The translations under genes were made by a program, and so were the position numbers. From positions 8,222 to 72,221 of the forward strand of contig JBAZNZ010000002.1 of the NCBI GenBank assembly GCA_041648975.1: 64,000 bases of DNA, read 5' to 3'. Source of the DNA: Candidatus Omnitrophota bacterium. GTDB taxonomy: Bacteria > Omnitrophota > Gorgyraeia > 2-01-FULL-45-10. The notes beneath the pieces are model-generated. The model was not told where the DNA came from. It did no database searches and was given only the letters and a program-made list of their open reading frames with translations. Of this stretch, positions 2,237 to 52,313 are shown one piece after another (position 1 is the stretch's first letter; the number at the start of each line of letters is the position of its first letter).

Positions 2237-2272
2237 ATTTTTTACTTATAACTTAAAACTTACGACTTATAA

Positions 2273-3070
2273 CTATTTTATGAGCTGCTCCAGGTAATCG
2301 TCTTTCTGCTGGAAAAACCTTATAGGCCCGTCGGGGCTGCCCATGACGAACTGCTGGACCATCTGGTTCGAACTCTTCTTTATCTGCTCCGGCGTCCCCA
2401 CCTCGAGGACTTTTCCTTCGTAAAGCATCGCTACCCTGTCCGCTATGGAAAATACGCTCTTCATATCGTGGGTCACCACGATGCTCGTTATGGCCAGTTT
2501 CTTGGAAAGATCTATTATGAGTTTGTCTATGACGCCGGCGACTATCGGGTCTAAGCCCGCCGTCGGTTCGTCGTAAAAGACTATCTCCGGGTCCATCACT
2601 ATCGCGCGCGCCAGCCCCACCCTCTTCCTCATGCCTCCTGAAAGCTGGCTCGGCATGAGATCCTCGAAGCCCCTCAAGCCCACAAGCTCCAGCTTCATCT
2701 TTACCACTATATCGATAACGCTCCTGTCGAGCCTGGTATGCTCCCTGAGCGGAAGGCTGACGTTCTCTCCGACAGTCATCGAATCGAAGAGCGCTGACGA
2801 CTGGAACGACATCCCGATCTTCTTCTTGACCTTGTCCATCTCGTCTTCGTTCAAAACGCTGAGGTCTTTTCCCAGCACGTGGACCTTGCCGGAATCGGGT
2901 TTCAGCGCGCCGATGAGATGCCGGAGGAATGTGCTCTTGCCGCACCCCGAGCCCCCCATTATCACGAACGTCTCGCCCCTGTATATCTCAAGGGATATGC
3001 CGTTCAGTATGGTCCGGTCGCCGAATCTCTTCACTACCTTATCGGCCTTTATTATAATCTCTTTTTCCAT
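2273..3070 (-). CDS. mlaF: ABC transporter ATP-binding protein MlaF
   Basis: Walker A motif GGSGCGKST, ABC signature LSGGMRKRVGLARAI, Walker B FYDEPTAGLD. About 265 aa, typical for MlaF. Confidence 0.85.
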   Translation of the reverse strand: MEKEIIIKADKVVKRFGDRTILNGISLEIYRGETFVIMGGSGCGKSTFLRHLIGALKPDSGKVHVLGKDLSVLNEDEMDKVKKKIGMSFQSSALFDSMTVGENVSLPLREHTRLDRSVIDIVVKMKLELVGLRGFEDLMPSQLSGGMRKRVGLARAIVMDPEIVFYDEPTAGLDPIVAGVIDKLIIDLSKKLAITSIVVTHDMKSVFSIADRVAMLYEGKVLEVGTPEQIKKSSNQMVQQFVMGSPDGPIRFFQQKDDYLEQLIK

Positions 3071-4675: not shown

Positions 4676-5653
4676 CTATTTTTCCGTGAATTTACCGATC
4701 GCCCGTATCCTGGAGTACCTCATATCCAGCAATTTGGTCCCGGACAGGCCCTTTAACTCGGCCAGGTCCTTCTTTATTACCTTCTTTATGTTATCGGCCG
4801 ACTCCTGAGGATTCCTGTGCGCCCCGCCGAGAGGTTCTTTTATTATACCATCGATAATTTGCATTTCAAATAAATCTTTCGCCGTCAATTTCAGCGCTGC
4901 GGCCGCGTCAGGCGCTCTCGAGCGCTCCTTCCACAATATGGCCGCGCACCCTTCGGGGGATATCACCGAATAATATGAATTTTCAAGTACATATGTCCTG
5001 TCGCCGATACCTATGCCGAGCGCCCCGCCGGATCCGCCTTCCCCGATAACAAATATGATCACCGGCGTAGCCAGGTCGGCCATCCTTCTTAAATTGTACG
5101 CGATCGCCTCAGCCTGGCCCCTCTCTTCAGCGCCTATCCCCGGATACGCTCCCGGCGTATCAATAAACGAAATTACCGGCAGGCTGAACTTTTCGGCCAT
5201 CTTCATCACCCGGATAGCCTTCCTGTACCCTTCCGGATGCGCGCTGCCGAAATTCCTTTCAAGGTTCTCTTTGGTATCCTTCCCCTTCTGGTGTCCTATA
5301 ACTACGATATTTTCACCGCCCACTTTCGCCAGGCCGCAGATCATCGCCTTGTCGTCGGCGTAATGCCTGTCGCCGTGGATCTCTATGAAATCCGTCATCA
5401 TCATATCTATATAGTCAAGTGTATACGGCCTTTTGGGATGACGGGCTATCTGCACCCTCTGCCACGGAGTCAGGTTATCATATATCTCTTTCTTTATGCG
5501 AGAGAGCTTCTCCTCGAGTCTTGTTACCTCCCCGGATATGTCTATGTCCTTATGGGCGGTGAACCCTCTGAGCTCGCCTATCTTCCTCTCCAGCTCTAAT
5601 ATGGGCTTCTCGAATTCCAACCCGTAAACATGTATAGCCATGTGATACTCCAA
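4676..5653 (-). CDS. accA: Acetyl-CoA carboxylase carboxyltransferase alpha subunit
   Basis: 325 aa. Conserved AccA blocks: PKRPYTLDYI, FIDTPGAYPGIGAEERGQAEAIA, GEGGSGGALG. Confidence 0.9.
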   Translation of the reverse strand: MEYHMAIHVYGLEFEKPILELERKIGELRGFTAHKDIDISGEVTRLEEKLSRIKKEIYDNLTPWQRVQIARHPKRPYTLDYIDMMMTDFIEIHGDRHYADDKAMICGLAKVGGENIVVIGHQKGKDTKENLERNFGSAHPEGYRKAIRVMKMAEKFSLPVISFIDTPGAYPGIGAEERGQAEAIAYNLRRMADLATPVIIFVIGEGGSGGALGIGIGDRTYVLENSYYSVISPEGCAAILWKERSRAPDAAAALKLTAKDLFEMQIIDGIIKEPLGGAHRNPQESADNIKKVIKKDLAELKGLSGTKLLDMRYSRIRAIGKFTEK

Positions 5654-5668
5654 TAGATTCCGCGATAA

Positions 5669-5790
5669 GTTACGTAACGTTACATAAAGTTACGTAAGGT
5701 TACATAATGTTACCGCCAGCACTCAATATTTTTAAAACTCGCAACCTTATGTAACCTCATGGAACCTGATGTAACCTTATGCAACATCCG
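5669..5790. repeat. Paired inverted arrays of a 10-bp tandem repeat (GTTACRTAAN x4.5, spacer, then NTTATGTAAC-like x4) in the accA promoter / L,D-transpeptidase terminator region
   Basis: 5669-5714 reads aGTTACGTAAcGTTACATAAaGTTACGTAAgGTTACATAAtGTTACC. 5743-5790 reads aaCCTTATGTAACCTCATGGAACCTGATGTAACCTTATGCAAC, the reverse-complement units. The 10-bp period equals one helical turn. Confidence 0.8.
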
Positions 5791-5797
5791 CGAATCT

Positions 5798-6739
5798 TTA
5801 GTCGACGATCAGCACTTCAGTCCCCTCCGGGACTATGGTATATAACTCTTCGACTTCCGCGTTCTTCATCCTCACGCAGCCTTCTGTGACGCTCCTGCCT
5901 ATCGATTCGGGCTCTATCGTCCCGTGGATCCCGTACCCCTCTTTGGATATACCGAGCCACCTGGAACCGAGCACATTCTTAGGATCCCCGGACTGAACCA
6001 CCCCTCCGGTGGGCGGATACCATGGCGGATCGACTATCTTGGTCGTGATCTTGAACGTGCCTACCGGCGTGCATGAATTTTTGCCGGTAGAGACCCTGTA
6101 TGTCTTCAATATATTTTCATTGTCCTTAAGCGTCAATATATTCTGTGACTTATCGACCGCTATGCTGAACCTGGATTTATTAATCTTGATATTTTCCCCT
6201 ACCCTGATAGCGTTGTTCTTAAGGCCGTTCGCCTTTGCTATCAACTCTACGGTGGTGCCGTATTTTTTCGCGATCCTGGTCAGCGTGTCGCCCTTCTGCA
6301 CCTCATAAGAAACAGAGTCCGGGGTCGGTATAGGCGAGAACAATATCTGCACGTTCACATTCTCCAGCGCCTCCTGCGCTTTCAATATCTCCCCCGACGC
6401 CGGGAACTTCTCTACTAACTTCTGGTAGGCGTCCCTCGCGTTCAGCAGCTCGCCGGATTTTTCGTATGTGGATCCGAGCAAAAAATAAGCCGTCAGGGCT
6501 TCGGCCGATCCGGGCGACTTCACTATAAGTATCTTCAGGTTCTTTAACGCTGTTTCGGTCTGGCCCTGCTCGAGCAATTTCTTGATGTCGCCCAGCTTCA
6601 TGACGGATTGATTAATAACCGCCGCGGACGACGCAGCCGCCCCTGATGGGGCTTTCGTTGAAATTATAATGTACCCTAGGACAGAGGCCGTTATTAAGAA
6701 TAATATAACCGCGCCGACAATCAGGAATCTCTTATCCAT
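5798..6739 (-). CDS. LysM and TPR-containing L,D-transpeptidase (YkuD domain)
   Basis: Signal/TM N-terminus and TPR-like region. LysM motif YEVQKGDTLTRIAKKYGTTVELIAKANGL. C-terminal YkuD catalytic motif GIHGTIEPESIGRSVTEGCVRM. Confidence 0.8.
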   Translation of the reverse strand: MDKRFLIVGAVILFLITASVLGYIIISTKAPSGAAASSAAVINQSVMKLGDIKKLLEQGQTETALKNLKILIVKSPGSAEALTAYFLLGSTYEKSGELLNARDAYQKLVEKFPASGEILKAQEALENVNVQILFSPIPTPDSVSYEVQKGDTLTRIAKKYGTTVELIAKANGLKNNAIRVGENIKINKSRFSIAVDKSQNILTLKDNENILKTYRVSTGKNSCTPVGTFKITTKIVDPPWYPPTGGVVQSGDPKNVLGSRWLGISKEGYGIHGTIEPESIGRSVTEGCVRMKNAEVEELYTIVPEGTEVLIVD

Positions 6740-7288: not shown

Positions 7289-7840
7289 ATGAGAAAACTG
7301 TTGGCGCTTACCGCAATAGCGATAGTAACGGCGCTTTTGGCGCCGTCCATATGCTTAGCGGGCAGCAACGAGCTGTCGTACCTGATTAATAAAGGAAATC
7401 CTATAAAAGTTTTCATGAAAGATTTCGTTAATGAATCCGGGCAGAATCAGCTGGTAATGGGAGAATTAGAGAAAACGGTGGAAAAATCGTTGCTTGCCAG
7501 AAAAGCCGTCACGTTCCATATAGCGAAGACTATCGAACAAAGCGATATATGCATATCATGCACCGTTAAGAAATACCAGTATCTCGAAAAAGGCCCACTC
7601 AAGTTTTCCCCAAGCCCGCAAGCTATGCTCTTAGACGCCGCTGCGTCAGCAACGGAAAACTACGTCGAGATGGACGCGGAATTCGTGATAGCGGACTCCA
7701 GAACAAATAAGACGCTCTGGAAAGACACGATCGGATTTTACGAAAAGAAAGTGATGACGCCCGCTGAAAGCACGCCGATAATATATGATCACGTAGCCAG
7801 GCGTTTTCTCTGGAAATCTTTCGGCAAGCCAAATAAGTAA
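7289..7840 (+). CDS. Hypothetical secreted or lipoprotein
   Basis: Signal peptide MRKLLALTAIAIVTALLAPSICLAG. No recognisable domain. Only plus-strand gene in this block. Confidence 0.5.
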   Translation: MRKLLALTAIAIVTALLAPSICLAGSNELSYLINKGNPIKVFMKDFVNESGQNQLVMGELEKTVEKSLLARKAVTFHIAKTIEQSDICISCTVKKYQYLEKGPLKFSPSPQAMLLDAAASATENYVEMDAEFVIADSRTNKTLWKDTIGFYEKKVMTPAESTPIIYDHVARRFLWKSFGKPNK

Positions 7841-8480: not shown

Positions 8481-8590
8481 TAAGTAAAAAGTCAAAAGGA
8501 AAAATGTAAAAGTCGTGTGTCGCTGTCGCGACCTTAAATATAGGTGCGAAGTACACAACACTTTTGCCTTTTCACTTTTTCCTTTTACCT
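8481..8590. repeat. Inverted arrays of AAAAGTN heptamer repeats forming a long imperfect hairpin between the mnmE stop and the folE start
   Basis: Left arm taAGTAAAAAGTCAAAAGGAAAAATGTAAAAGTCgtgtg (8481-8517). Right arm cacaACACTTTTGCCTTTTCACTTTTTCCTTTTACC (8553-8590). Confidence 0.7.
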
Positions 8591-9982
8591 TTATTTTCCG
8601 ATACAGAATTGCTCAAATATCCTATCGAGGATATCATCCGAGACAGACTTGCCGACTATGAGCCCCAGATGATACAGCGCTTCCTTCAAATCGACAGCGA
8701 CCAGCTCGCAGGGCGTTCTCTTTGCAAGCGCCTTCTTAACTGATAGCATATTATCGAGCGCCCTGTCAAGAAGCTCTTTGTGGCGCGCGTTCGCCACTAC
8801 TGCCGATTCGCCCTGGTCATACTCTCCGCTCCATACGGCCCCAAGCAACTCCTTCTCCAGCGTTCCTATATTACGTCTCTTCCCAACCGATATCTCGACT
8901 ATCTTATCATCCTTGAAAAACTTTTTGGCTTTTTTCGCGTCCGTCTTTTTCGGAAGGTCGGATTTGTTTATCACCACTATCTTCTTCTTGCCGAGTGCCA
9001 ATTTTATTATATCCAGGTCTTCTTTTCCGATCGCGGTAGAGCCGTCGAGCACGAGGATCACTATATCCGCGAGATCCAGGTACTTCTTGCTCCGCTTCAC
9101 GCCCTCCTTATCGAGCGCGTCCTTCGCATCGGCTATGCCCGCCGTATCCACAAGCCTGACTGGAACACCTTTAAGGTTTATGACTTCTTCCACAGCGTCT
9201 CTCGTTGTTCCCGGTATAGGAGAGACTATGACCCTGTCCCTGTTCAACAGCAGGTTCATCAGGCTTGATTTGCCGACGTTCGGCTTGCCGCAGATTATCG
9301 CCAGCACCCCTTCCCTTAGCACTGCGCCGCTCCGGTATGTGCGGACAAGATCCTGCAATCCGCGTATAACGCCTTCAACCTTTTTTACCAGCCCGGAATT
9401 CTCTATTATCTCTATGTCTTCTTCCGGAAAATCTATAGAGGCCTCTATCTGCGAGGCTGCATCGATCATGGAATCAAGTATCGCGTTCACCTTATTCGAA
9501 AGTCCGCCGTCAAGCTGGCTCATCGCGACCTTCAGGGATCCTTCGGTCTTGGATCTGATGACGTCCAGGACCGCTTCCGCCTGCGCCAGGTCGAGCCTGC
9601 CGTTAAGGAACGCGCGCTTCGTAAATTCTCCGGGCTCGGCCAGACGCGCCCCGCGTTCCAATATCAGTTCAAGGGCCCTCTTCGCCGCCTGGATTCCTCC
9701 GTGGCAATTTATCTCCACAACATCCTCTTTCGTATAGCTCTTCGGAGCCTTCATAACGGTCAAAAGGACTTCATCAACTACCCTGTTTTTTTCATCTACT
9801 ATGTGGCCGTAATGGACTGTGTAAGTCTTAAATTTGGAAGGCTTATCTTTATCTTTTGAAGCGAATACGGCATCCGCGATCATGAGCGCCTTTGGCCCGC
9901 TGAGCCTGGCTATGCTTATACCTCCCTCGCCTATCGGCGTGGAGAGCGCGGCAATAGTATCGTCTGGACTATTATTTTTCAT
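8591..9982 (-). CDS. mnmE: tRNA modification GTPase MnmE (TrmE)
   Basis: 463 aa. G domain GKPNVGKSSLMNLLL...DTAGI. Ends in the characteristic CIGK tetrapeptide. Confidence 0.9.
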   Translation of the reverse strand: MKNNSPDDTIAALSTPIGEGGISIARLSGPKALMIADAVFASKDKDKPSKFKTYTVHYGHIVDEKNRVVDEVLLTVMKAPKSYTKEDVVEINCHGGIQAAKRALELILERGARLAEPGEFTKRAFLNGRLDLAQAEAVLDVIRSKTEGSLKVAMSQLDGGLSNKVNAILDSMIDAASQIEASIDFPEEDIEIIENSGLVKKVEGVIRGLQDLVRTYRSGAVLREGVLAIICGKPNVGKSSLMNLLLNRDRVIVSPIPGTTRDAVEEVINLKGVPVRLVDTAGIADAKDALDKEGVKRSKKYLDLADIVILVLDGSTAIGKEDLDIIKLALGKKKIVVINKSDLPKKTDAKKAKKFFKDDKIVEISVGKRRNIGTLEKELLGAVWSGEYDQGESAVVANARHKELLDRALDNMLSVKKALAKRTPCELVAVDLKEALYHLGLIVGKSVSDDILDRIFEQFCIGK

Positions 9983-11298: not shown

Positions 11299-11386
11299 TA
11301 GTTACCAGTTACCAGTTACCAGTTACCAGAATAGTCAAACTGCCACTTTTCTTTTCTGGTTACTTCCTTTCTGGTTTCTGGTTACT
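11299..11386. repeat. Inverted arrays of AGTTACC heptamer repeats (x4 and x3) between the purH stop and the folC start
   Basis: 11299-11329 reads AGTTACCAGTTACCAGTTACCAGTTACCAGa. 11355-11386 reads tCTGGTTACttcctttCTGGTTTCTGGTTACt, the complementary units. Confidence 0.8.
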
Positions 11387-15925: not shown

Positions 15926-18310
15926 TTATCCGCACTTTGAATAACCGCAGGACTTGCAGATCATACACCCTTCGACATGCCATAAGGCGCTTCCGCAGTC
16001 CGGACATACGCCGACTATATTACCGGTCTTGGATTTTACGGCCTGCCCGCCTGTAATCGCCCCACCGGGCAGGCGGGCCTGCCCGCCTGACATTGCCCCC
16101 TCGGGCAGGCGGGCCTTTGCCACTCCTCCGGACCCTTCGGACGCTATCTGGGCGCTATTTTGGCCTGCTTGCGGCGCCGCAGTATCGGTCTCAGGCGCCT
16201 TTTTAGCCTTCTCATCCTGCATCCTTCTCTCTATAACGCGCGCTATGGCGTCGCTGCAGGAGAATATCCTGCCGCCTTTTTCCCAGCTGGGCGACGGGCA
16301 CCTTATCCCGCGAAGCTGCTCGATGATGGAATTCGTATCTATCCCGCTCCTGAAGGCCAGAGAAACGAGCCTTCCGATAGCCTCGAGTTGGCTCATCGCG
16401 CATCCGCCGGCCTTACCCATGGAGGTAAAGAGCTCAAACGGCAGGCTCTTTTCATCTACATTTATCGTGACATAGAGATTTCCGCATCCTGTAGCTATCT
16501 TGGTCGTAGTGCCGGTTATGACATTAGGCCTTGGCCGCGGCACTATCTTCGTTTCGGAAGGCGCTTTTATATCAGGCGCAGCTGATCCGGATATATTCAA
16601 TACCTGCTCTTCCCTGGATTTATCCCTGTAAATAGTCACGCCTTTGCAGCCGGTTTCATATGCCAGCATATATATAGAGTAGACGTCCTCCGTGGTAGCT
16701 TCGGTGGGAAGATTGACTGTCTTTGATACCGCGTTATTCGTGTACTTCTGGAAAGCCGCCTGCATCTTTATATGCCAGACGGCTTCTATGTCATGAGCCG
16801 TAACAAAAAGCTTCTGGGCGTCTTCCGGCACCTGGTCGAGTCCCCTGACAGTTCCCTTTTCCGCGATAATATTCATAAGTTCCGTTGAATAGAAGGACCT
16901 CTTTTCGGCTACTTCTTCAAAATAAGGATGGACTTCCACGAATTTCGTATTGTCCAGTATGTTCCTTATGTAGGAAATAGCGAATACAGGCTCTATACCG
17001 CTGGAACAATTGGCAATGATAGATAAAGTCCCTGTCGGCGCTATAGTCGTAAGCGTTGCGTTCCTGAGCGGCCTCGCGCCCGGCACATCGTATATGCTTC
17101 CGCGGAAATTCTGGAAAGCCCCTCTCTCTGCGGCCAGGTTCCGGGAAGCGGCCTGCGAAGTCTCCAGTATGAACTTCATTATCTTTTCAGCCATCTGTGT
17201 AGCGTTCTCCGAATCGTAGCTCACCCCTAACATCAGGAGCATGTCGGCGAAACCCATTACGCCGAGGCCGATCTTACGATTCGATTTGGTCGTATCCTCT
17301 ATCCTCTTCAGGGGATAGCAGTTCATGTCTATGACATTGTCAAGGAAGTGGACAGCCTTTATTACGGTATTTCCCAGCTTTTTCCAATCTATCTCGCCGG
17401 AGGATATCATCCTGGCTAAATTTATGGATCCCAGATTGCAGCTTTCATACGGAAGAAGAGGCTGTTCCCCGCAAGGATTGGTCGATTCTATCTCACCCGC
17501 CTTCGGCGTCGGGTTATCCCTGTTGATCCTGTCTATAAAGACTATCCCCGGCTCACCGTTCTTCCATGCCATTCTTATTATCAGGTCCAGCACCTTCCTC
17601 GCGTTCAATTTCTGCACGCATTTCTTTGTGTGAGGATCGATGAGATCGTAATCTTCACCCTTTATGGCCCTCTTTATGAAATCCTCGGTGATCGCCACCG
17701 AGATATTAAAATTGGTTATCTCCTTGTCGCTCTCTTTACACGTCACGAACTCGATTATATCCGGATGATCCACCCTCAGGATGCCCATGTTGGCGCCCCT
17801 GCGCGTCCCGCCCTGCTTGACCGCCTGGGTCGCGGAATTGAAGACCTTCATAAAAGATACCGGACCGCTTGATATGCCGCCCGTTGACCGTACCGGAGAA
17901 TTTTTTGCGCGCAGCCTGGAAAAAGAAAAACCGGTGCCTCCGCCGGATTTATGTATGAGGGCCGTATCTTTGATCGTCCCGAATATCGACTCCATCGAGT
18001 CATCTATGGACAGGACAAAACAGGCCGATAACTGCTGGAGATCCCTGCCCGCGTTCATCAGCGTGGGAGAATTCGGAAGGAATTCCAGGTTAGCCATCAT
18101 ATCGAAAAATTCGCGCTCGGCGCGCGCGACCTGCTCATCCGTTTTTCCGTAGTACTTATCGGCCGTCGCTATGTTCGACGCTACCCGGTGGAACAACTCC
18201 TCGGGCGTCTCTATGACCTTACCGTCGTCATCCCTTTTCAGGTACCTCTTCTCTAATACCTTCCTGGCGCTTTCCGACAACGCCGCCTTTCCGCCGCTCT
18301 TCTCTTCCAT
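15926..18310 (-). CDS. nrdJ: Adenosylcobalamin-dependent (class II) ribonucleotide reductase
   Basis: 794 aa. RNR catalytic core present (e.g. PCGEQPLLPYESCNLGSINL). C-terminal zinc ribbon CPDCGSALWHVEGCMICKSCGYSKCG, typical of monomeric NrdJ. Confidence 0.9.
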   Translation of the reverse strand: MEEKSGGKAALSESARKVLEKRYLKRDDDGKVIETPEELFHRVASNIATADKYYGKTDEQVARAEREFFDMMANLEFLPNSPTLMNAGRDLQQLSACFVLSIDDSMESIFGTIKDTALIHKSGGGTGFSFSRLRAKNSPVRSTGGISSGPVSFMKVFNSATQAVKQGGTRRGANMGILRVDHPDIIEFVTCKESDKEITNFNISVAITEDFIKRAIKGEDYDLIDPHTKKCVQKLNARKVLDLIIRMAWKNGEPGIVFIDRINRDNPTPKAGEIESTNPCGEQPLLPYESCNLGSINLARMISSGEIDWKKLGNTVIKAVHFLDNVIDMNCYPLKRIEDTTKSNRKIGLGVMGFADMLLMLGVSYDSENATQMAEKIMKFILETSQAASRNLAAERGAFQNFRGSIYDVPGARPLRNATLTTIAPTGTLSIIANCSSGIEPVFAISYIRNILDNTKFVEVHPYFEEVAEKRSFYSTELMNIIAEKGTVRGLDQVPEDAQKLFVTAHDIEAVWHIKMQAAFQKYTNNAVSKTVNLPTEATTEDVYSIYMLAYETGCKGVTIYRDKSREEQVLNISGSAAPDIKAPSETKIVPRPRPNVITGTTTKIATGCGNLYVTINVDEKSLPFELFTSMGKAGGCAMSQLEAIGRLVSLAFRSGIDTNSIIEQLRGIRCPSPSWEKGGRIFSCSDAIARVIERRMQDEKAKKAPETDTAAPQAGQNSAQIASEGSGGVAKARLPEGAMSGGQARLPGGAITGGQAVKSKTGNIVGVCPDCGSALWHVEGCMICKSCGYSKCG

Positions 18311-18424
18311 CTTATATTCTCCTATAAAATGATCGCTGTTTCTTGAATAAAATTATAAAAAAATACCGGAATATCGCTTTCCGGTCTTAGAATATACCAT
18401 ACATGACGTAATAAGTCAAGGGGA

Positions 18425-18471
18425 ATACTATATATTGTGTTTTTCATGAGTGATGACACTATTAGTAGGGG
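18425..18471. promoter_or_regulatory. Candidate NrdR-box pair upstream of nrdJ
   Basis: 18425-18440 ATACTATATATTGTGT matches the NrdR box consensus acaCwAtATaTwGtgt at 15 of 16 positions. A weaker second box ACACTATTAGTAGGGG (18456-18471) lies with its centre 31 bp away, the usual two-box geometry. Confidence 0.5.
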
Positions 18472-18599
18472 CCTGTCTCCGGCGAGATTTTATGATCTAT
18501 TTATGAATTCTTATTATTAAAATATAAAAGCCCGTGGTTTTAGTTCGATATCTCGCGTATCTAACAAATACCAAGGGCTCATTATTATAATTGTGAACT

Positions 18600-18806
18600 T
18601 TATTTTTTTTCTTCTTTTTTAAAAGCCTGTTCGTCTTTCATCTCGCTCACTCCGGCTATCACGGCTATGGCTCCCGCGAATATCATTATGGCTGGAACGA
18701 TGCCTTTCAAGACAAGCATCGTCAAACCCCACCATCTGACCAGCCCTAACAGACCAAGAAGTGCGACAACGGCTCCGATAATCACGCTTAGATACTTACC
18801 CATCAT
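18600..18806 (-). CDS. Small two-helix membrane protein
   Basis: 68 aa, two hydrophobic helices and a Lys/Glu-rich C-terminus. Confidence 0.4.
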   Translation of the reverse strand: MMGKYLSVIIGAVVALLGLLGLVRWWGLTMLVLKGIVPAIMIFAGAIAVIAGVSEMKDEQAFKKEEKK

Positions 18807-18904
18807 CTCACCCCTCCTTTCTGATCGATCGCGAAAAAATTATATCACGCCGCAATTTCTGTTGCAAGAAAAAAGATTAAAAAAAATTTTCTGCTACTAC
18901 TATT

Positions 18905-19155
18905 CTAACCTAAGCTTAGTTATGTGAGCACTGAAAATATTTCCCCTACGCTCTAACTACGGGGTCGGTCTTTGTTCAGTCGAAAAACGGGAGCCTGCGG
19001 CAACTCGGCCGGCGTCCCGCCTTCGGCGGGACGATAATCCGGCCTCGAACAGCCTTGGCTCTTTTAATATCAAAACATTGTTATATATAACCGTTTTTCT
19101 TCTTCACAAAGACCTAATATTTTCAATGTGCTCATCATAACGTCGGCTTAGGTTA
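18905..19155. mobile_element. MITE-like rod-shaped palindromic element, copy 1 (251 bp, 38-bp imperfect terminal inverted repeat)
   Basis: Terminal repeats TAACCTAAGCttagTTATGtGAGCACtGAAAATAT and ATATTTTCaaTGTGCTCATcATAAcgtcgGCTTAGGTTA. Nested internal complementarity ggtctttgt/acaaagacc, gaaaaacgg/ccgtttttc, ggccgg/ccggcc. Apex hairpin GTCCCGCCttcgGCGGGAC. Confidence 0.7.
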
Positions 19156-19425
19156 TCCAGCCTGCTGTAGCAAGAAAATTTTTTTACACACTCAGGTGGC
19201 AGAACTTTTGGGCGATTGCCGAAGCGAATGTCGTAAAATTTCGATACCTATTGGCGATATAGCAAGGACTCGCAAACCTGTCAACAGCATGCCCTCAGTC
19301 CGGGTTACGAGGCCATCGAAATTTTACCACAGCAAATTTACATGCCTAATGTAAATTTGCGGCGAGCGGAGGCAACGCCCGAAAGTTCACGCCGGACTGG
19401 GGTTGGGAGAAAAATTTTACGCGGA

Positions 19426-29235: not shown

Positions 29236-29574
29236 TAACCTAAGCCTCGTTATTCGAGCACTGAAAATATTCCCCAGCGCTCTAATACTTGGGTCGGTCT
29301 TTGTTCAGTCGAAAAACGGGAGCCTGCGGCAACTCGGCCGGCGTCCCGCCTTCGGCGGGACGATGATCCGGCCTCGAACCCTCCTTCGTCCCGCCACCTT
29401 TGGCGGCGGTACTTCGGAGGGATTTCGCCGAAGCAATCTATGGTAATACTACGGAATGCGAAGGCGAACAGCCTTGGCTCTTTTAATATCAAAACATTGT
29501 TATATATAACCGTTTTTCTCCATCACAAAGACCTAATATTTTCAATGTGCTCATCATAACGTCGGCTTAGGTTT
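29236..29574. mobile_element. MITE-like palindromic element, copy 2 (339 bp; carries a 90-bp nested insertion at 29380-29469)
   Basis: Same terminal repeats and interior as copy 1. The extra segment, itself hairpin-rich, is flanked by a CGAAC direct repeat. Confidence 0.7.
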
Positions 29575-30052
29575 ATAGCTGCCCAGACATCAGTAACTCC
29601 GGGACGTTTCTATCTGGAAATTTTTCGGGTGACGCGGCTTGAGACTTTTTATGATAAGGGCGAAGTATGGATGGGGTGTCCCGAATACAGCAAGTGTAGT
29701 TCGGGCATATAGATACGCGCTTATATATACCACGGGATTGTAAACCCGTTCCTGCCTTTATGCTTACGGGTGGCAGGAACGGATGGGGTGCCCGAATGTT
29801 AATGACTGTGGTTCGGGATACATAGATACGCGCATAGAATATACCGATATCTAATGACTGAGAGTCAAGTTAGACCGTTATCTACCCCGCATAGTATAAA
29901 GAAATAGGGAGATTGTAAACCCATACGAGCCCTTTAAAAGAAAAAGTCTCAGCCGCGGCAGGACCCGAAAAATTTAATCCTACATGGGCTAGTGTCCGGA
30001 AGCACGCGGCAGACTGGGGATGGGCGAAAAATTTCAAATTTCAAAATTTCTG

Positions 30053-30081
30053 TTGACATAACAGGAGTGCCGTGGTATATT
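30053..30081 (+). promoter_or_regulatory. Sigma70-type promoter (TTGACA, 17-bp spacer, TATATT) with an upstream A/T-phased AAATTTC x3 UP-like tract
   Basis: 30053 TTGACA. 17-nt spacer TAACAGGAGTGCCGTGG. TATATT at 30076. About 175 nt upstream of the cspA ATG. Confidence 0.65.
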
Positions 30082-30115
30082 ATTACTGCAGTTAAGAAGG
30101 ATAGGAGATCTTGGA

Positions 30116-30151
30116 CCGTAAGGCTGGATTGACCGACCTTGCGGTTTTTTT
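30116..30151 (+). terminator. Intrinsic terminator/attenuator inside the cspA leader
   Basis: Stem CCGTAAGG ... CCTTGCGG (one G-U pair) followed by TTTTTTT at 30145-30151. Confidence 0.55.
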
Positions 30152-30255
30152 ATTCGCTGTCGCTGTCATAGGCGAATAATCCGCCAACGCTTTATGGCGG
30201 ATGATCATTATCCCGTATTTGCTGCAATTTTCAGCGAAAGGAGGCAACAAGATCA

Positions 30256-30456
30256 ATGGTTAAAGGAAAAGTAAAATGGTTCTCAAACGAGAAAGGTTAT
30301 GGGTTTATTACTCCTGAAAACGGAAATGATGTATTCGTGCATCACACTTCGATTCAGGGTGAAGGCTATAAGTCTTTGGAGGAAGGCCAGGATGTCGAGT
30401 TAGATATCGTGCAGGGCCCCAAAGGCGAACAAGCTGCAAACGTAGTGAAGTTATAA
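30256..30456 (+). CDS. cspA: Cold-shock protein (CspA family)
   Basis: 66 aa. RNP1 and RNP2 motifs KGYGFI and VFVHH. Confidence 0.9.
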
Positions 30457-30474
30457 CCGGGTGAGAATAATAAA

Positions 30475-30512
30475 CCATCTTCCTGATTTTATTCAGGAGG
30501 GTGGTTTTTTTA
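30475..30512 (+). terminator. Intrinsic terminator after cspA
   Basis: Stem CCATCTTCCTGA / TCAGGAGGGTGG followed by TTTTTTTA. Confidence 0.65.
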
Positions 30513-30554
30513 TTTCAAATACCGCTCAATTGACAAGGCCGCTTTAAGCGTGCT

Positions 30555-31298: not shown

Positions 31299-31359
31299 CA
31301 TCAACTTAATCACTTAATTACTTAATCGCTTAATAGCTAAGTCGGACATAACTCCATAC

Positions 31360-33779: not shown

Positions 33780-33805
33780 TTTAAGTCAATCTCCTCTCTT
33801 AAGTT

Positions 33806-33936
33806 AAATTCGAAATACGAATATCGAAATCCGAAACAAATTCTAAATCCTGATTTCCAAAACATCACTTCTTATCATTAGAATTTTCGAACATTCGGAT
33901 TTGTTTCGAATTTCGGATTTCGAGCTTCGAATTTTA
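33806..33936. repeat. Inverted arrays of CGAAATN-type heptamer repeats between the ahcY stop and the fba start
   Basis: Left AAATTCGAAATACGAATATCGAAATCCGAAACAAATTC. Right GAATTTTCGAACATTCGGATTTGTTTCGAATTTCGGATTTCGAGCTTCGAATTTTA. Confidence 0.7.
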
Positions 33937-33940
33937 CCCT

Positions 33941-35197: not shown

Positions 35198-35213
35198 GGT
35201 ATATCTCCGCGTT

Positions 35214-35301
35214 AGTTATAAGTTGTAAGTTTTAAGTTTTAAGTCGCAAGCTATCAACAATTCGCTTACGACTTACAACTTACGACTTACGACTACTTAA
35301 C
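35214..35301. repeat. Inverted arrays of TAAGTTN / ACTTACN heptamer repeats between the metK stop and the ahcY start
   Basis: Left gttaTAAGTTGTAAGTTTTAAGTTTTAAGTCGCAAGC. Right GCTTACGACTTACAACTTACGACTTACGACTACTTAAC. The right arm overlaps the last metK codons. Confidence 0.8.
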
Positions 35302-37358: not shown

Positions 37359-37384
37359 AACTTTTCCCTTTTTACTTTTGCCTT

Positions 37385-38455
37385 TTACCCTTTCTTTGAC
37401 AATTCTTTTTTAAGATACGTTATCCTGTCTACAGGTGTCGGGTCTGTCCTGTTCATTATGGCAAGATAGAAACTTGCAAAATCGCCCATATATATGAGCG
37501 AAAATATCCTCGCCAATAATCCGTCACCGGAAGAATGGACTTCCGTCGCTTCGATGCCTTCCGTCTTCAGCATCCTCTTGACGATATCCATCCTTAATCC
37601 TATGCGGGGACTATCCCCCTTATCTCTTAATAAAATGACAGCAAAACTTTTCAGTATACGTTCCGGATTTGCCCAGCCGACGATCTCATTATGGCACATC
37701 TCGGGAAAAGTATGGACGGATGAAACGGTTTTGGAATTTTCCGCAAGCTCGCCTCTCCATCTGGTAGCCGCGCAGTCTATATGTTCCTGGCCGGCATAGA
37801 TCACAGGGTATTTAAGGTATAATTTCCCGGCGATCTTCTTTGCCGGGTTAACGCTCTCAGGAACGGCATGGCCCAATCTCTCCTTCAGGCGGCTTAAGAC
37901 CTTTATCGTCTCAGAGATATCCTTTTCCTGGCTTCCCGCAAATCCTATTTTAGACAATAGGATAAGGAGAGGAAAGAACGAATAGCCTATAGCGCAGCGG
38001 GGCGGCAGCCCTCCGGGTATGATGACCGCGGGAAAACCGTCGGCTTCGGCCATCTTCTTTAGTTTCCCGCCGGAAGTTATGACTATGATATCGGCCTTTT
38101 TAGCCTTGGCGTCTTTATACGAGCTTATCGTCTCTTCGGTATTCCCTGAATAGCTTGAGGCTATAATCAAAGATCCTCTGCCCACAAAACCGGGCACGGT
38201 ATAGTTCCTGTTAACAAACAGAGGGGCCCTCGCCTTATCGAAGAGATATGATCTTGCGATATCCGCGCCGATGGCTGAACCGCCCATACCCGCGCATACT
38301 ATATTCTTATATCCGGATTTGAAACGCCGCGGCAGGTCGATCTTAGATCCTATACTACTGGCGACAAGGCACTGCTGAGGCAACAGCTCGATCGTCTCCA
38401 GCATACCTGCCCTGTCATATCTCGTAATATTTTTCGGATCGTCTAAGTTCATTCT
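37385..38455 (-). CDS. Bifunctional phosphoglucose/phosphomannose isomerase (SIS-domain, archaeal-type PGI/PMI)
   Basis: SIS motifs GMGGSAIG and IASSYSGNTEET. Start placed at the second Met (MNLDDPK) so that it does not overlap ptsI. The ORF track extends it to 38488. Confidence 0.65.
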   Translation of the reverse strand, partial: RMNLDDPKNITRYDRAGMLETIELLPQQCLVASSIGSKIDLPRRFKSGYKNIVCAGMGGSAIGADIARSYLFDKARAPLFVNRNYTVPGFVGRGSLIIASSYSGNTEETISSYKDAKAKKADIIVITSGGKLKKMAEADGFPAVIIPGGLPPRCAIGYSFFPLLILLSKIGFAGSQEKDISETIKVLSRLKERLGHAVPESVNPAKKIAGKLYLKYPVIYAGQEHIDCAATRWRGELAENSKTVSSVHTFPEMCHNEIVGWANPERILKSFAVILLRDKGDSPRIGLRMDIVKRMLKTEGIEATEVHSSGDGLLARIFSLIYMGDFASFYLAIMNRTDPTPVDRITYLKKELSKKG

Positions 38456-42602: not shown

Positions 42603-42677
42603 ATGGAGCGGCGGATGGGTTTCGAACCCACGACATCGACCTTGGCAAGGTCGCATTCTACCACTGAATTACCGCCG
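42603..42677 (-). tRNA. tRNA-Gly (GCC)
   Basis: Reverse complement GCGGCGGTAATTCAGTGGTAGAATGCGACCTTGCCAAGGTCGATGTCGTGGGTTCGAAACCCATCCGCCGCTCCA. Cloverleaf with anticodon loop TTGCCAA. CCA is encoded. Confidence 0.9.
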
Positions 42678-42957
42678 CTTTTGCAAAGCAAAAGCGATGC
42701 TGAGCTAGCCATGAAGCGCGACGAACAGGAGCGCTTCAGGCGACGCGAAGCACCTATGCTTCGACTAAAATATAATTGCGCTAAAGTCTGACCGCTTGCC
42801 CGTGAACTGATCCTAGGTCCTTCGTTGGCCTACAGTTTGACTCCAGCCTCCTCAGGATCTTTCTCTTCATATTGTCTATAGGTATTTCAGCCGCTAAAAT
42901 CCTTCCTTTGGTCGGATTTCTTTACGCGGCTTCAATATCAAAATTGCTTCGCAATTT

Positions 42958-43033
42958 TGGTGCCCGCACCAAGAATCGAACTTGGAACCTTGACATTAAG
43001 AGTGTCCTGCTCTGCCAATTGAGCTATGCGGGC
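42958..43033 (-). tRNA. tRNA-Lys (CTT)
   Basis: Reverse complement GCCCGCATAGCTCAATTGGCAGAGCAGGACACTCTTAATGTCAAGGTTCCAAGTTCGATTCTTGGTGCGGGCACCA. Anticodon loop CTCTTAA. Confidence 0.85.
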
Positions 43034-43150
43034 AATCTCAGTCAGTTTTAGCGCAATAAATTGTTGAGCCTAAACCCGACCTTAAACTATTCATGGCGAA
43101 ATCCGCCGAAGCACCTTCTAGCTTGCGCCTTGATTGCGGAGGCGGAAGCT
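43034..43150. repeat. Partial tandem duplication of the tRNA-Lys upstream unit, ending in a copy of the first 12 nt of the tRNA
   Basis: The unit is homologous to the tRNA-Arg 120-bp repeat (ATTGTTGAGCCTAAACCCGACCTTAAACTATTCATGGCGAAATCCGCCGAAGC...). It ends GAAGCTATGCGGGCG, matching the tRNA-Lys 5' end AGCTATGCGGGC. Confidence 0.65.
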
Positions 43151-43523
43151 ATGCGGGCGTCGCGAAAACCGTCCTGCTATATCGCTCCTTAGAAGGAAAC
43201 CTAGGTTTCCTTCTAACGTCCCGCCAGGACTATAACTCTGGGCGGGACTGTTTTCCTTCCTCTAACTTTAACACCAAAAACAAAAAAAGCATGGAATAAA
43301 ATTCGCTATATCTAAAAATCCCTAGTTGCTTAGAGCGATAATTATATCAAAATCATAAATTAAATGCAATAAATTCTATTAGATATGGCAAAATACGTAA
43401 TTTAGCCAATTTTATTCTGACTATTTCATTCCACTCGAGCTGATATAGGTCCTTCGTCGAACCGCAGTCTAACTCAATCCTCCTCAGGATCAAATTTTAC
43501 CTGAGTGAGACTGCAGTAAAATT

Positions 43524-43608
43524 TGGTGCGGGCGAAGGGATTTGAACCCCCAAGCCTTGCGGCATACGGTCCTAAGCCGTACACGTCTGCCAATTCCGTC
43601 ACGCCCGC
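43524..43608 (-). tRNA. tRNA-Leu (TAG), long variable arm
   Basis: Reverse complement GCGGGCGTGACGGAATTGGCAGACGTGTACGGCTTAGGACCGTATGCCGCAAGGCTTGGGGGTTCAAATCCCTTCGCCCGCACCA. Anticodon loop CTTAGGA. Confidence 0.85.
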
Positions 43609-43929
43609 GTAAGTCCACTTAAGTCACATCGTCAGAGTTTAGGTATTTTGTGCATTGCGCTGTTGTATTCGCTTTGCGCAAGGCCAATTCCGCCACTTCT
43701 ATCTGACTGGATATCTCTTGCACTTCCAGCCTAAGTGACGGGCCACGTCCGCTGAAATTTATGTATAAATTTCATCCCGAGGCTGCGACAAATCGGAGCA
43801 GCCGAGGGAATACATCTTAAGTCAAATCGTCAAAGTATATTACAGTTTTTTATCTGTAGCCCCTCGCAGCTTGACTAAAATACATGCTGCTCGGGACAAA
43901 TTTCGCCTGAGTTAGGCTGCGGCAAAATT

Positions 43930-44006
43930 TGGCGCGCCCGGGGTGAATCGAACACCCAGCCTACTGGTTCGAAGCCAGCCACTCTATCCAATTGAGCTAC
44001 GGGCGC
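43930..44006 (-). tRNA. tRNA-Arg (TCG)
   Basis: Reverse complement GCGCCCGTAGCTCAATTGGATAGAGTGGCTGGCTTCGAACCAGTAGGCTGGGTGTTCGATTCACCCCGGGCGCGCCA. Anticodon loop CTTCGAA. Confidence 0.85.
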
Positions 44007-44246
44007 TTTTACTCAAATAAGCACAAAAATTGTTGAGCCTAAACCCGACCCTAAACTATTCATGGCGAAATCCGCCGAAGCTTCAACCGGTATCGCTGAT
44101 TCAGCGAAGGCGGAAGCTACGGGCGCTTTTACTCAAATAAGCGCAAAAATTGTTGAGCCTAAACCCGACCCTAAACTATTCATGGCGAAATCCGCCGAAG
44201 CTTCAACCGGTATCGCTGATTCAGCGAAGGCGGAAGCTGCGGGCGC
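44007..44246. repeat. Two tandem 120-bp copies of the tRNA-Arg upstream region, each ending with the first 12 nt of tRNA-Arg
   Basis: Period measured from AAACCCGACC at 44041 and again at 44161. Both units end GGCGGAAGCTACGGGCGC (unit 2 reads GCTGCGGGCGC). The tRNA 5' end is AGCTACGGGCGC. Confidence 0.8.
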
Positions 44247-44394
44247 TCTTTAAAAGGTCCGCCTCTTTCAACCTGCCGCCGCGCAGGCCGCTATTCGCGG
44301 CATTTACGATCGCCTCCACATCCTCATTCGTTATGTCGCCCTGTTTTATCGTAATCATCCGGCAAAAGGCGCCTTACGCCTGATATTCTACTCT

Positions 44395-51344: not shown

Positions 51345-52313
51345 TTATTTACCGCTCTTCTTGCGCTGAGGCATGAGAGGATTGGTGCCGATCTTAGAAT
51401 TAGCTTCAAGATCATATTTCTGGCTCTTTATCAGGACCGTATCCTGCTCCGAAAGACCGGAAACGATCTCTATATTTTTTTCATCGGCTATGCCGAGCTC
51501 CACTTTCCGCTCCACTCCTTCTTTACGCGGCCCTCCGGATACAATCACGTAAGCCGCTCCGTCCTTATCTTTCTTGACCGCCTCAAGCGGCACAAGAAGA
51601 GCGTCGTCTTTCGTCTTTTCCACTATATTGACGGTCGCGGACATTCCCGAGCGGAAGACTTGCGGGACGCTGTCAGGCATGACATCGACCTCGTAAATGG
51701 TCACGTTATTCACCGTTGTGGACTCATAATATATGTGGTCTACCTTCCCGTCCACCTTGATCTTAGGATACGCGTCAAGGCTTATCATAGCTTTTTGCCC
51801 CACGCGCACCCCGCCTATATCGGTTTCGTCTACCTGCGCCTGCACTATCAGATGGTCCGACAGGACGATAACGGCGTCCGACGAGGTGATCGTCTGGCCC
51901 GATTCGCAGGTGCTGACTATGACCTCGCCGTCTATCGGAGAGATCAGGGGGGCCGCTTTATACACTTCCTGCCAGTATTTGACCTCTTCAGGCCCTCTGG
52001 CTCTAGCGGCGTCCAGGAGCGCCGCTCTTTCGGTCGAGCTCATCCACGCCAACGTCTGTCCCGCCTTCACCATATCCCCTTCCTTGACCAGGATCTCGTC
52101 TATCCGTCCGTTTATCGGAGGCTTCACCTCCAGCCTGTTCTCCGGCTGGACCGTCGCTGTCGAAGTTATCATAGTCTGGATACTGCCGATCACGGGTCTC
52201 ACTTCCCTGGTGACTTCACCTGAAGATTTTTTATTTACCGCGAATAAAAATATCACCGCCAGGATGATTAATAATAAGCCAAGGTATAATTTCCATCTAT
52301 TAATTTTGATCAT
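51345..52313 (-). CDS. macA: MacA/HlyD-family periplasmic adaptor (membrane fusion protein)
   Basis: N-terminal TM helix, then biotinyl-lipoyl, beta-barrel and membrane-proximal domains. 322 aa. Confidence 0.8.
   Translation of the reverse strand: MIKINRWKLYLGLLLIILAVIFLFAVNKKSSGEVTREVRPVIGSIQTMITSTATVQPENRLEVKPPINGRIDEILVKEGDMVKAGQTLAWMSSTERAALLDAARARGPEEVKYWQEVYKAAPLISPIDGEVIVSTCESGQTITSSDAVIVLSDHLIVQAQVDETDIGGVRVGQKAMISLDAYPKIKVDGKVDHIYYESTTVNNVTIYEVDVMPDSVPQVFRSGMSATVNIVEKTKDDALLVPLEAVKKDKDGAAYVIVSGGPRKEGVERKVELGIADEKNIEIVSGLSEQDTVLIKSQKYDLEANSKIGTNPLMPQRKKSGK

Follow-up and report, generated by a model that had tools for sequence, protein, structure and literature searches.

The 23S rRNA genes of bacteria such as Leptospira, Coxiella and Brucella are known to contain intervening sequences (IVSs) with an open reading frame (ORF) for S23p, a protein of the type also encoded by Xanthomonas (PMC4990558). 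In Coxiella GACAGAT heptamers precede the S23p ORF, the ends of the IVS form a terminal stem and its excision by RNase III has been demonstrated; IVSs are regarded as selfish elements that depend on host transcription, and the Xanthomonas S23p homolog is a homopentameric toroid (PMC4990558). PF05635/TIGR02436 is the protein family of these S23p proteins and of the retroelement protein Avd. Short intergenic repeats have been catalogued separately, namely the Xanthomonas heptamer GGGAATC with 70-75 convergent inverted pairs and the Nostoc heptamer GGGGAYT of the short tandemly repeated repetitive (STRR) type (Rehm et al. 2015, PMC4692102), and the TAACTGA repeats of Beggiatoaceae, cyanobacteria and Bacteroidetes (MacGregor 2015, PMC4679880). 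These catalogues give no mechanism and suspect horizontal spread, with the Xanthomonas and Nostoc repeats also being discussed as G-quadruplex formers (PMC4692102), and S23p or four-helix-bundle genes are mentioned zero times in either (PMC4692102, PMC4679880). Here we analyze a pair of inverted 10-nucleotide (nt) repeat arrays lying between a ykuD gene and accA in a 64-kb stretch of DNA from a Candidatus Omnitrophota bacterium (hereinafter the window). We conclude that positions 5655-5797 are probably a gene-less ('solo') palindromic element of the PF05635 family, inserted at an operon junction, rather than a control site for fatty-acid synthesis.

Among other palindromic insertions, the Correia elements of Neisseria, also called Neisseria miniature insertion sequences (NEMIS), are 100-150-bp intergenic palindromes that are co-transcribed with their neighbors, occur in many gene-less copies and form an RNase III-cleaved hairpin; each end is a unique sequence of 26 bp, insertion duplicates a TA target, and no four-helix-bundle gene is known to be associated with them. 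The focal element resembles them as a palindromic intergenic insertion but differs in that its arms are tandem arrays. Terminal inverted repeats built of tandem 10-, 20- and 31-bp units, again with many arms-only copies, typify the FB Foldback elements of Drosophila, although these belong to eukaryotes and are kilobases long, and we imply no homology with them. Repetitive extragenic palindromic (REP) sequences and bacterial interspersed mosaic elements (BIMEs) are imperfect palindromes between co-directional genes that act as mRNA stabilizers; the REP unit is about 35 nt long with a GTAG motif, is not internally periodic, and its partner, the REP-associated tyrosine transposase (RAYT), is a Y1/HUH transposase and not a PF05635 protein (PMC3333891). 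We rejected a REP/BIME identity for the focal element as its sequence holds no GTAG-headed palindrome of about 35 nt. Compared with the rRNA IVSs, the focal copy lacks an ORF, is situated in an mRNA operon junction and has about five 10-nt units per arm, and its cleavage by RNase III can be proposed by analogy.

The junction is laid out as follows, in the order in which it would be transcribed:

5798-6739, minus strand: ykuD, the upstream gene, coding for a LysM/TPR/YkuD L,D-transpeptidase (Pfam YkuD E 1.9e-24, LysM E 1.7e-15)
5786-5797, minus strand: outer stem, 5' side in the mRNA (AGAUUCGCGGAU), pairing with 5655-5666 in the minimum-free-energy fold
5741-5787, minus strand: arm 1, the 5' arm in the mRNA, GAUGUUGCAU AAGGUUACAU CAGGUUCCAU GAGGUUACAU AAGGUUGC
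5714-5740, minus strand: loop or spacer of 27 nt, no ORF
5667-5713, minus strand: arm 2, the 3' arm in the mRNA, GUAACAUUAU GUAACCUUAC GUAACUUUAU GUAACGUUAC GUAAC
5655-5666, minus strand: outer stem, 3' side (AUCGCGGAAUCU), from the minimum-free-energy fold
5639-5651, minus strand: accA ribosome-binding site GGAG (5648-5651) with the ATG (5639-5641), unpaired in the fold
4676-5641, minus strand: accA, acetyl-CoA carboxylase carboxyltransferase alpha (Pfam ACCA E 5e-148)

A preliminary description of this DNA had recognized two inverted 10-bp arrays here, and both are real. Tandem Repeats Finder reports the array nearer accA (5667-5713) with 4.7 copies at period 10 (81% matches, score 59) or, when read at period 20, with 92% matches and a score of 80, and the second, inverted array (5743-5785) with 4.3 copies at period 10 and a score of 58. 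An inverted-repeat search delimits the arms as 5669-5711 and 5743-5785, each of 43 nt, 79% complementary and separated by 31 nt. On the plus strand the units at 5669-5713 read GTTACGTAAC GTTACATAAA GTTACGTAAG GTTACATAAT GTTAC, giving the unit consensus GTTACRTAAN, and those at 5743-5785 read AACCTTATGT AACCTCATGG AACCTGATGT AACCTTATGC AAC; the unit GTTACGTAAC is itself palindromic, as had been noted. In the mRNA, arm 1 presents five (A/U)GGUU or AUGUU cores spaced 10 nt apart. The spacer had been described as 28 bp and AT-rich; it is 27-31 nt long depending on where the arms are taken to end, and has about 41% G+C overall, with only the center rich in A and T. The arrays do lie between accA and the upstream gene, with the correction that the genes on either side are both minus-strand genes. 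The accA start had been placed at 5653, where a TTG marks merely the start of the longest ORF; the probable start is the ATG at 5641, behind GGAG at 5648-5651.

Pairing of the arms continues outward through AGATTCGCGGAT / ATCGCGGAATCT in mRNA sense (AGATTCCGCGAT / ATCCGCGAATCT as plus-strand letters), and hence the whole of 5655-5797 (143 nt) forms a single hairpin, outer stems included. It commences 1 nt past the ykuD stop codon (TAA, 5798-5800) and ends 3 nt ahead of the accA Shine-Dalgarno sequence. Minus-strand RNA of this stretch has a folding energy of -54.7 kcal/mol, whereas 200 shuffles gave -30.3 +/- 3.5 (z = -6.99; 0/200 as good); folded as DNA its z is -4.2. With its inverted terminal arms of 43-47 nt, the focal element can thus fold into a long stem. 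At the gathering threshold Rfam 15 finds only tRNAs in the whole window, with no family for the hairpin and no rRNA, and at permissive thresholds the best sub-threshold matches are to microRNA-precursor models with chance-like E-values of at least 0.11. An independent Logan assembly of the same strain (L081) is identical over 9.7 kb. As this sole other contig with the same accA is 100% identical, it is uninformative regarding changes in copy number.

To place the hairpin in an evolutionary context we compared the junction with its orthologs in related genomes, the best accA matches being 82-86% identical and coming from other Candidatus Omnitrophota. The gene ykuD adjoins accA in 52/55 related loci, and in about 50 of the 55 the true gap is below 50 nt, with accA abutting ykuD and no arrays present. 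Apparent gaps of about 107 nt in some relatives are in fact Lys-rich N-terminal extensions of accA: these extensions (MSKKTKKKKS..., about 30 residues) are seen in L027, L037, L040, L045, L046 and L079, are located about 85 nt upstream of the accA start as aligned in that Omnitrophota subgroup, and are absent from the accA of the window. Excising 5655-5797 in silico leaves a 13-nt stop-Shine-Dalgarno-ATG junction resembling that of the closest relatives L001, L005 and L007. Given the tight, hairpin-free junction of most relatives and the 13-nt junction restored by excision, the focal hairpin is a lineage-specific insertion in an operon junction and no conserved promoter element. The few other occupied ykuD-accA junctions carry different elements: a 7-nt AGCGNAA array in L016, an AAATCCG hairpin in L033 whose loop matches that of an element at 33.8 kb in the window, and, in the auribacterotal locus L055, a PF05635 gene with inverted 8-nt GAGCCGGA arrays placed inside the gap itself. 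An intrinsic (Rho-independent) terminator was also considered for the focal hairpin and rejected, the stem being A/U-rich and directly followed by a Shine-Dalgarno sequence, with no G+C-rich stem and U-tract; a terminator scan of 5400-6000 returned no terminator-like site on the gene strand.

The focal hairpin is one member of a dispersed family. The 10-nt arms recur in L016, in the gap from purH to folC, and scanning metagenomes with three loose units recovered more than 120 stretches, many of them unrelated satellites, of which about 25 are built alike, with [AAGGTTNCRT] x5 followed by 0-45 nt of loop and by [AYGNAACCTT] x5. The host contigs of the gene-less copies range from 42 to 68% G+C, and about 20/21 of these copies sit between co-directional genes. 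Eight contigs of a single related metagenome carry the 10-nt element, one of which, L087, is syntenic with the window over 35.9-41.4 kb at 45-74% amino-acid identity. Loop sequences are common to the pairs L160/L167, L087/L173 and L133/L179, some as reverse complements; shared loops in both orientations indicate a probable copy-and-paste mode of spread. The occupied gaps (purH-folC, pgi-nucleoside triphosphate (NTP)-transferase, clpP-aminotransferase, and those at ilvD, thrS, pta and others) have no lipid theme, and the flanking genes are functionally unrelated, coding for 3-deoxy-D-arabino-heptulosonate 7-phosphate (DAHP) synthase, ExbB, Pta, IlvD, ThrRS, GDP-mannose dehydratase, ClpP and FabD/FabF. 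In combining terminal inverted repeats with many dispersed copies (about 25 loci) the family resembles the miniature transposable elements with inverted repeats known as MITEs. A distinct, highly conserved repeat family (…GTTCCATAAAGTTCCGGAACTTTTCCCC…GTTCCATAAAGTTCCATAAAGTTCC…) with a similar 10-nt unit was encountered in L082, L083, L092, L131, L136-L138, L150 and L158; it occurs on many short metagenome contigs in a different context and is possibly a eukaryotic or viral transposon end.

This distribution bears on the proposal of the preliminary description that the arrays are helically phased operators, or a looping pair, controlling the accA promoter and with it fatty-acid synthesis. Such a model would predict the strict 10-bp period and an inverted pair of arrays beside accA, regulators of the OmpR/PhoB type do bind 10-11-bp direct repeats, and one family member (L132) is indeed situated between fabD and fabF. 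That copy is one context among many, however, and the same element recurs between unrelated genes. For an operator or iteron one would expect the motif to persist at orthologous promoters and to recur at co-regulated genes; here the arrays are absent from most orthologous junctions, which are those of a tight operon, and a promoter scan found no promoter-like site on the gene strand. Searching the 64 kb for GTTACRTAA gave exact matches only inside the arrays and 22 matches at up to one mismatch against 18.3 expected, i.e. the chance level. Further, sibling arrays elsewhere in the window have periods of 7 or 8 nt, so that a 10-bp helical phase is no property of the class. We accordingly assign the operator model next to no probability. 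Its idea of a repeat-recognizing protein may nevertheless survive in a different form, that of a pentameric four-helix-bundle protein which is no regulator of accA.

The connection to such proteins is seen at locus L149, where inverted arrays 413 nt apart surround an ORF that matches TIGR02436 as well as PF05635, the '23S rRNA-intervening sequence protein' family (E 1.2e-18 for PF05635). This protein has 575 relatives, several of them named 'four helix bundle protein [Candidatus Omnitrophota]' and many encoded on contigs of about 1 kb. In nine further distinct contexts of the same protein clade (clade A), all lying between co-oriented operon genes such as glycosyltransferase family 2 (GT2)-EpsH, EpsH-EpsI, leuB-mdh, leuB-asd and rpsA-tyrS, AGGTTNNNNN arrays are present upstream and NNNNNAACCT arrays downstream of the gene in every case, as was also apparent on inspecting the flanks by eye. 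The last AGGTTNNNNN unit doubles as the Shine-Dalgarno sequence of the gene. An arm profile (nhmmer) was then built from the arms of 17 gene-less copies, leaving out the window, and run against 1.33 Mb. It recovers both focal arms, on opposite strands (arm 1 E 7.1e-12, arm 2 E 6.4e-11), as well as the flanks of the PF05635 genes in L149, L204, L225, L226 and L219, always on the plus strand upstream and on the minus strand downstream (E 2e-11 to 9e-4); among 80 accA loci it detects only L016, itself one of the 17 profile sources. The focal arms hence fall in the same sequence family as arrays flanking PF05635 genes, and we hold their membership in the PF05635-element family to be very probable. 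The loop between the arms is 27 nt long and contains no ORF, of the PF05635 type or otherwise; the focal element is therefore a gene-less relative and no full member.

The same architecture extends to other protein clades with other units. A second clade (clade B) from Omnitrophota and Patescibacteria, represented by four genes, has A-rich 7-nt flanking arrays (AAAGCGN, AAAACTT) that resemble the arrays at 8.5 kb and 37.4 kb of the window. A tblastn search against plasmids returned 30 records, almost all cyanobacterial, and 10 of the 12 plasmid-borne genes of cultured organisms that we examined, annotated as 'four helix bundle protein' or 'S23 ribosomal protein', have flanking arrays, with units such as AGCAGGG (Nostoc, Tolypothrix), GGGTGTA (Calothrix) and AAGGGAA (Geminocystis). 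The plasmids concerned (L244-L253 and L255, from Nostoc, Tolypothrix, Leptolyngbya, Brasilonema, Calothrix and Geminocystis) show inverted G-rich heptamer arrays of the STRR type, and in Nostoc sp. MS1 the entire 31-nt gap upstream of the four-helix-bundle gene consists of 4.4 x AGCAGGG. On plasmid AZO_p2 of Azospirillum lipoferum 4B (L254, 14392-14733) an unannotated S23p-like ORF lies within a 23S rRNA gene, in the helix-45 region, and is bracketed by inverted GACAGAG/GACGGAG/GACGGAT heptamers (GACRGAK). L254 is a true IVS with the same plan as the intergenic elements, and its arms, present on both sides, resemble the GACAGAT repeats of Coxiella. In the gene-bearing elements, as in IVSs, terminal inverted repeats and a long stem surround a PF05635 ORF, with heptamers adjoining the ORF start; the focal element itself is situated between coding genes and not at helix 25 or 45 of 23S rRNA. 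Overall we examined about 27 PF05635 genes (from Omnitrophota, Patescibacteria, cyanobacteria and the Azospirillum 23S IVS), and nearly all are enclosed by inverted arrays of 7-10-nt units. Searching the literature under the PF05635 family names yielded nothing on flanking arrays, and searches on Omnitrophota tandem repeats or on the array sequence yielded no papers; no connection between PF05635 and intergenic arrays of heptamers or decamers was found in the literature searched.

These observations also bear on a purely neutral origin, whereby slippage expands a 10-mer and template switching at a quasi-palindrome copies it onto the other arm, without any family, mobility or function. Slippage does alter the arrays: L219 and L222 (around 1451-1530) share the same protein and neighbors, and their 5' arrays differ by 30 nt, exactly three units, which is direct evidence of the process; furthermore, the variable positions show no covariation, consistent with such an origin. 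But many genomes, spanning 42-68% G+C, have this unit core and the 5+5 plan in common, the arms are recognized by a profile with E-values of 1e-11, loops are common to several copies and arms are specifically associated with PF05635 genes. A neutral product is therefore very improbable as an account of the focal element. Phase variation was rejected given the imperfect units and the housekeeping nature of the genes.

Other gaps between co-directional housekeeping genes in the window hold short-period arrays with differing units, at about 4.3-4.6 copies:

8482-8592, minus strand: paired sibling in the mnmE-folE gap, inverted 7-nt arrays AAAAGNN / NNCUUUU with a 49-nt spacer (Tandem Repeats Finder, inverted-repeat search)
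11300-11386, minus strand: paired sibling in the purH-folC gap, AGTTACC x4.3 plus a TTTCTGG-type array (Tandem Repeats Finder, sequence)
33803-33937, minus strand: paired sibling in the ahcY-aldolase-like gap, inverted 7-nt arrays AAAUNCG / CGNAUUU, 44 nt, 77%
35210-35294, minus strand: paired sibling in the metK-ahcY gap, inverted 7-nt arrays AAGTTNT / CTTACRA (Tandem Repeats Finder, inverted-repeat search)
2244-2274, minus strand: single array filling the 36-nt mlaF-mlaD gap, 7-nt ACTTANN x4.4 (Tandem Repeats Finder, Pfam)
37361-37393, minus strand: single array in the pgi-NTP-transferase gap, 7-nt CTTTTNC x4.6 (Tandem Repeats Finder)
31304-31334, plus strand: single array in the comF-like-lptF/G gap, 8-nt ACTTAATC x3.9 (Tandem Repeats Finder, Pfam)

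The 7-nt arrays of the window are of the same class as the focal hairpin, the 10-nt type having only one copy in the 64 kb, and the alternative offered in the preliminary description, that the hairpin is the largest example of such a class, is upheld. Several siblings have ties of their own to the wider family: units of the mnmE-folE element resemble the arms of clade-B four-helix-bundle genes, the loop of the 33803-33937 element is common to L033 and L042, and its CGAAAYN units are also found upstream of a four-helix-bundle gene in L210. Like the published heptamer repeats, which are few-copy intergenic arrays often forming inverted, stem-loop-capable pairs near start codons, the 7-nt siblings are short intergenic arrays of this kind; the focal element differs from them in its 10-nt unit. 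Arrays of 7-nt units are also present in frame within housekeeping genes of Omnitrophota, spanning 30-58 nt at the same linker or loop position with genome-specific units: in the purH linker of L008 (4247-4279), L009 (2300-2329) and L021 (3798-3827), with GCCAGGG, GTCACAA and GTCCCCA, and in the N-terminal loop of mnmE in L006 (3813-3842), L008 (6745-6798) and L012 (3852-3909), with AGTTCAC, ACCCYGG and AAACAGA. They recall the palindromic elements of Rickettsia, selfish sequences tolerated in frame inside housekeeping genes, although those are unique sequences of 100-150 bp and not tandem arrays. In L045 (20211-20241) a 7-nt array, AGTGRTA x4.4, and its complement stand directly between two tRNA genes, so that arrays are found in tRNA clusters too.

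That the same gaps recur raises the question of whether the hairpins are instead a host 'punctuation' of operons, i.e. REP-like stabilizers, processing sites or weak terminators evolving in place, with the four-helix-bundle genes being separate homing cassettes. The purH-folC gap holds arrays in four genomes (the window, L012, L016 and L024), the pgi-NTP-transferase gap has a 10-nt paired element in L087 at the site orthologous to 37361-37393, and these gaps, along with ykuD-accA, are filled by arrays of differing unit and period across genomes. Moreover, near accA the gene-less copies far outnumber gene-bearing ones, and nearly all gene-less copies lie between co-directional genes. On the other hand, a junction of 13-30 nt suffices in most relatives, implying that the hairpin is dispensable, no G+C-rich stem followed by a U-tract is present, and loops shared in both orientations are as copy-and-paste spread predicts. 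Moreover, each type of array goes with a particular clade of the protein, and the gene takes its Shine-Dalgarno sequence from the last unit, which points to co-inheritance of arrays and gene. On balance we consider operon punctuation unlikely.

The preferred reading is thus that of a solo element of the PF05635 family. A full element would comprise about five tandem 10-nt units per arm, with an AGGTT core in one arm and AACCT in the other, and a PF05635 gene between them; the copy here, without the gene, was inserted precisely where the stop codon of ykuD gives way to the ribosome-binding site of accA, in an otherwise tight operon junction and in this lineage alone. The junction is probably transcribed through, and in the mRNA the arms would pair into an imperfect stem of about 57 bp that leaves the accA Shine-Dalgarno sequence free and brings the ykuD stop codon beside it. 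By analogy with the rRNA IVSs, RNase III would cut this stem, so that the ykuD cistron would be parted from that of accA; failing that, folding into the stem would at least keep the insertion harmlessly aside. Any effect on accA expression would be a by-product and not a regulation specific to fatty-acid synthesis.

Whether the elements act as RNA can be approached through strand asymmetry. Orientation cannot be derived from the arm consensus, as the reverse complement of an inverted repeat reads identically, and we therefore used the asymmetry of G-U pairs instead. Of 14 ORF-bearing elements, 11 form a more stable duplex between their arms as sense RNA than as antisense RNA (mean -8.3 kcal/mol; p = 0.002), a bias that is the signature of an RNA stem, and the focal copy agrees, with -54.7 against -41.2 kcal/mol and 7 against 2 G-U pairs in sense and antisense RNA, respectively. 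From this bias in gene-bearing elements and in the focal copy we infer a stem formed in mRNA that would be a likely kind of substrate for RNase III. Processing of the focal stem by this enzyme, being argued by analogy, is plausible if somewhat doubtful.

Several observations weigh against the solo-element interpretation or its RNA component. In the 24 gene-less copies, sense and antisense stability with respect to the flanking genes is split 14 versus 10 (p = 0.28), and the variable positions are 44% complementary in true and shifted registers alike, as compared to 93% for the core positions; given the lack of register-specific complementarity, pairing may not be what selection acts on in solo copies. 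No rnc gene, coding for RNase III, was found in the window or the loci, and the enzyme is presumed to be present in this organism. A search with hidden Markov models found no PF05635 gene in the 64-kb window or in about 1.1 Mb around the accA genes of relatives, except for L055. The flanks CTAA|A...T|ATTGG show no clear target-site duplication of the kind seen in MITEs, and the gene-bearing form encodes only a PF05635 protein and no recognized transposase that could act as a MITE partner. Causality might also be reversed, with four-helix-bundle genes homing into pre-existing hairpins.

A further question is why the unit core is conserved. We considered mimicry of the Shine-Dalgarno and anti-Shine-Dalgarno sequences (AGGU / ACCU), but this fits clade A only; as the 7- and 8-nt cores of other clades do not conform to it, we did not adopt it as a general cause. 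Since the unit core is itself conserved, the units may be recognized by a protein, for which the pentameric four-helix-bundle protein is the obvious candidate. Arrays typically hold five cores, at a period of 7 or 10 nt alike, and the structure of the Xanthomonas homolog (PDB 2gsc) has five chains. The arrays could then be recognition sites of homopentameric PF05635 proteins, with one repeat core per subunit; we regard this as a minor possibility, rather against the odds. To the same tentative degree, the unit would differ with the clade of the protein that it matches, and protein and arrays would together constitute a self-propagating or self-processing module.

A few other features of the window are of note. 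At 43995-44252 a 120-nt unit is repeated 2.1 times at 97% identity, starting inside the 5' end of tRNA-Arg(TCG) (43930-44006, minus strand); it stands at the edge of a cluster of four tRNAs (Gly, Lys, Leu and Arg; 42604-44006) and may have arisen by partial duplication of the tRNA or as the scar of an integration event. A G+C-rich hairpin unit of 36 nt, GGCCTGCCCGCCTGAAATCGCCCCACCGGGCAGGCG, is present in 2.1 copies at 16040-16116, within a crude putative ORF call (15926-18310), and does not resemble the A/T-rich arrays. On the plus strand, opposite to a long run of minus-strand genes, 7289-7840 is a 183-aa ORF with no Pfam match that is also called in L081. The window is otherwise tightly packed, apart from three stretches of 0.9-1.1 kb with no convincing ORF (18311-19425, 29493-30554 and 51416-52299).

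At the focal locus, these results do away with a regulatory annotation of accA that is tempting but wrong. More generally, they tie together three things that have been described separately: the intergenic heptamer and decamer repeats, which are over-represented in several phyla and have lacked an explanation since about 1990; the genes for a 'four helix bundle protein' that are strewn over the genomes of cyanobacteria, Patescibacteria and Omnitrophota; and the IVSs of 23S rRNA. Should recognition of the units by the protein be borne out, the heptamer repeats whose presence between genes is a puzzle in cyanobacteria (STRR), Xanthomonas, Beggiatoaceae, Patescibacteria and Omnitrophota would be explained, a so far unrecognized module that colonizes operon junctions and rRNA would come into view, and PF05635 would gain its first function outside diversity-generating retroelements. 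If the pentameric protein and the arrays belong together as halves of a single element, their origin would become directly testable, and possibly their function too, and annotators would gain a rule for recognizing such insertions, including those in frame.

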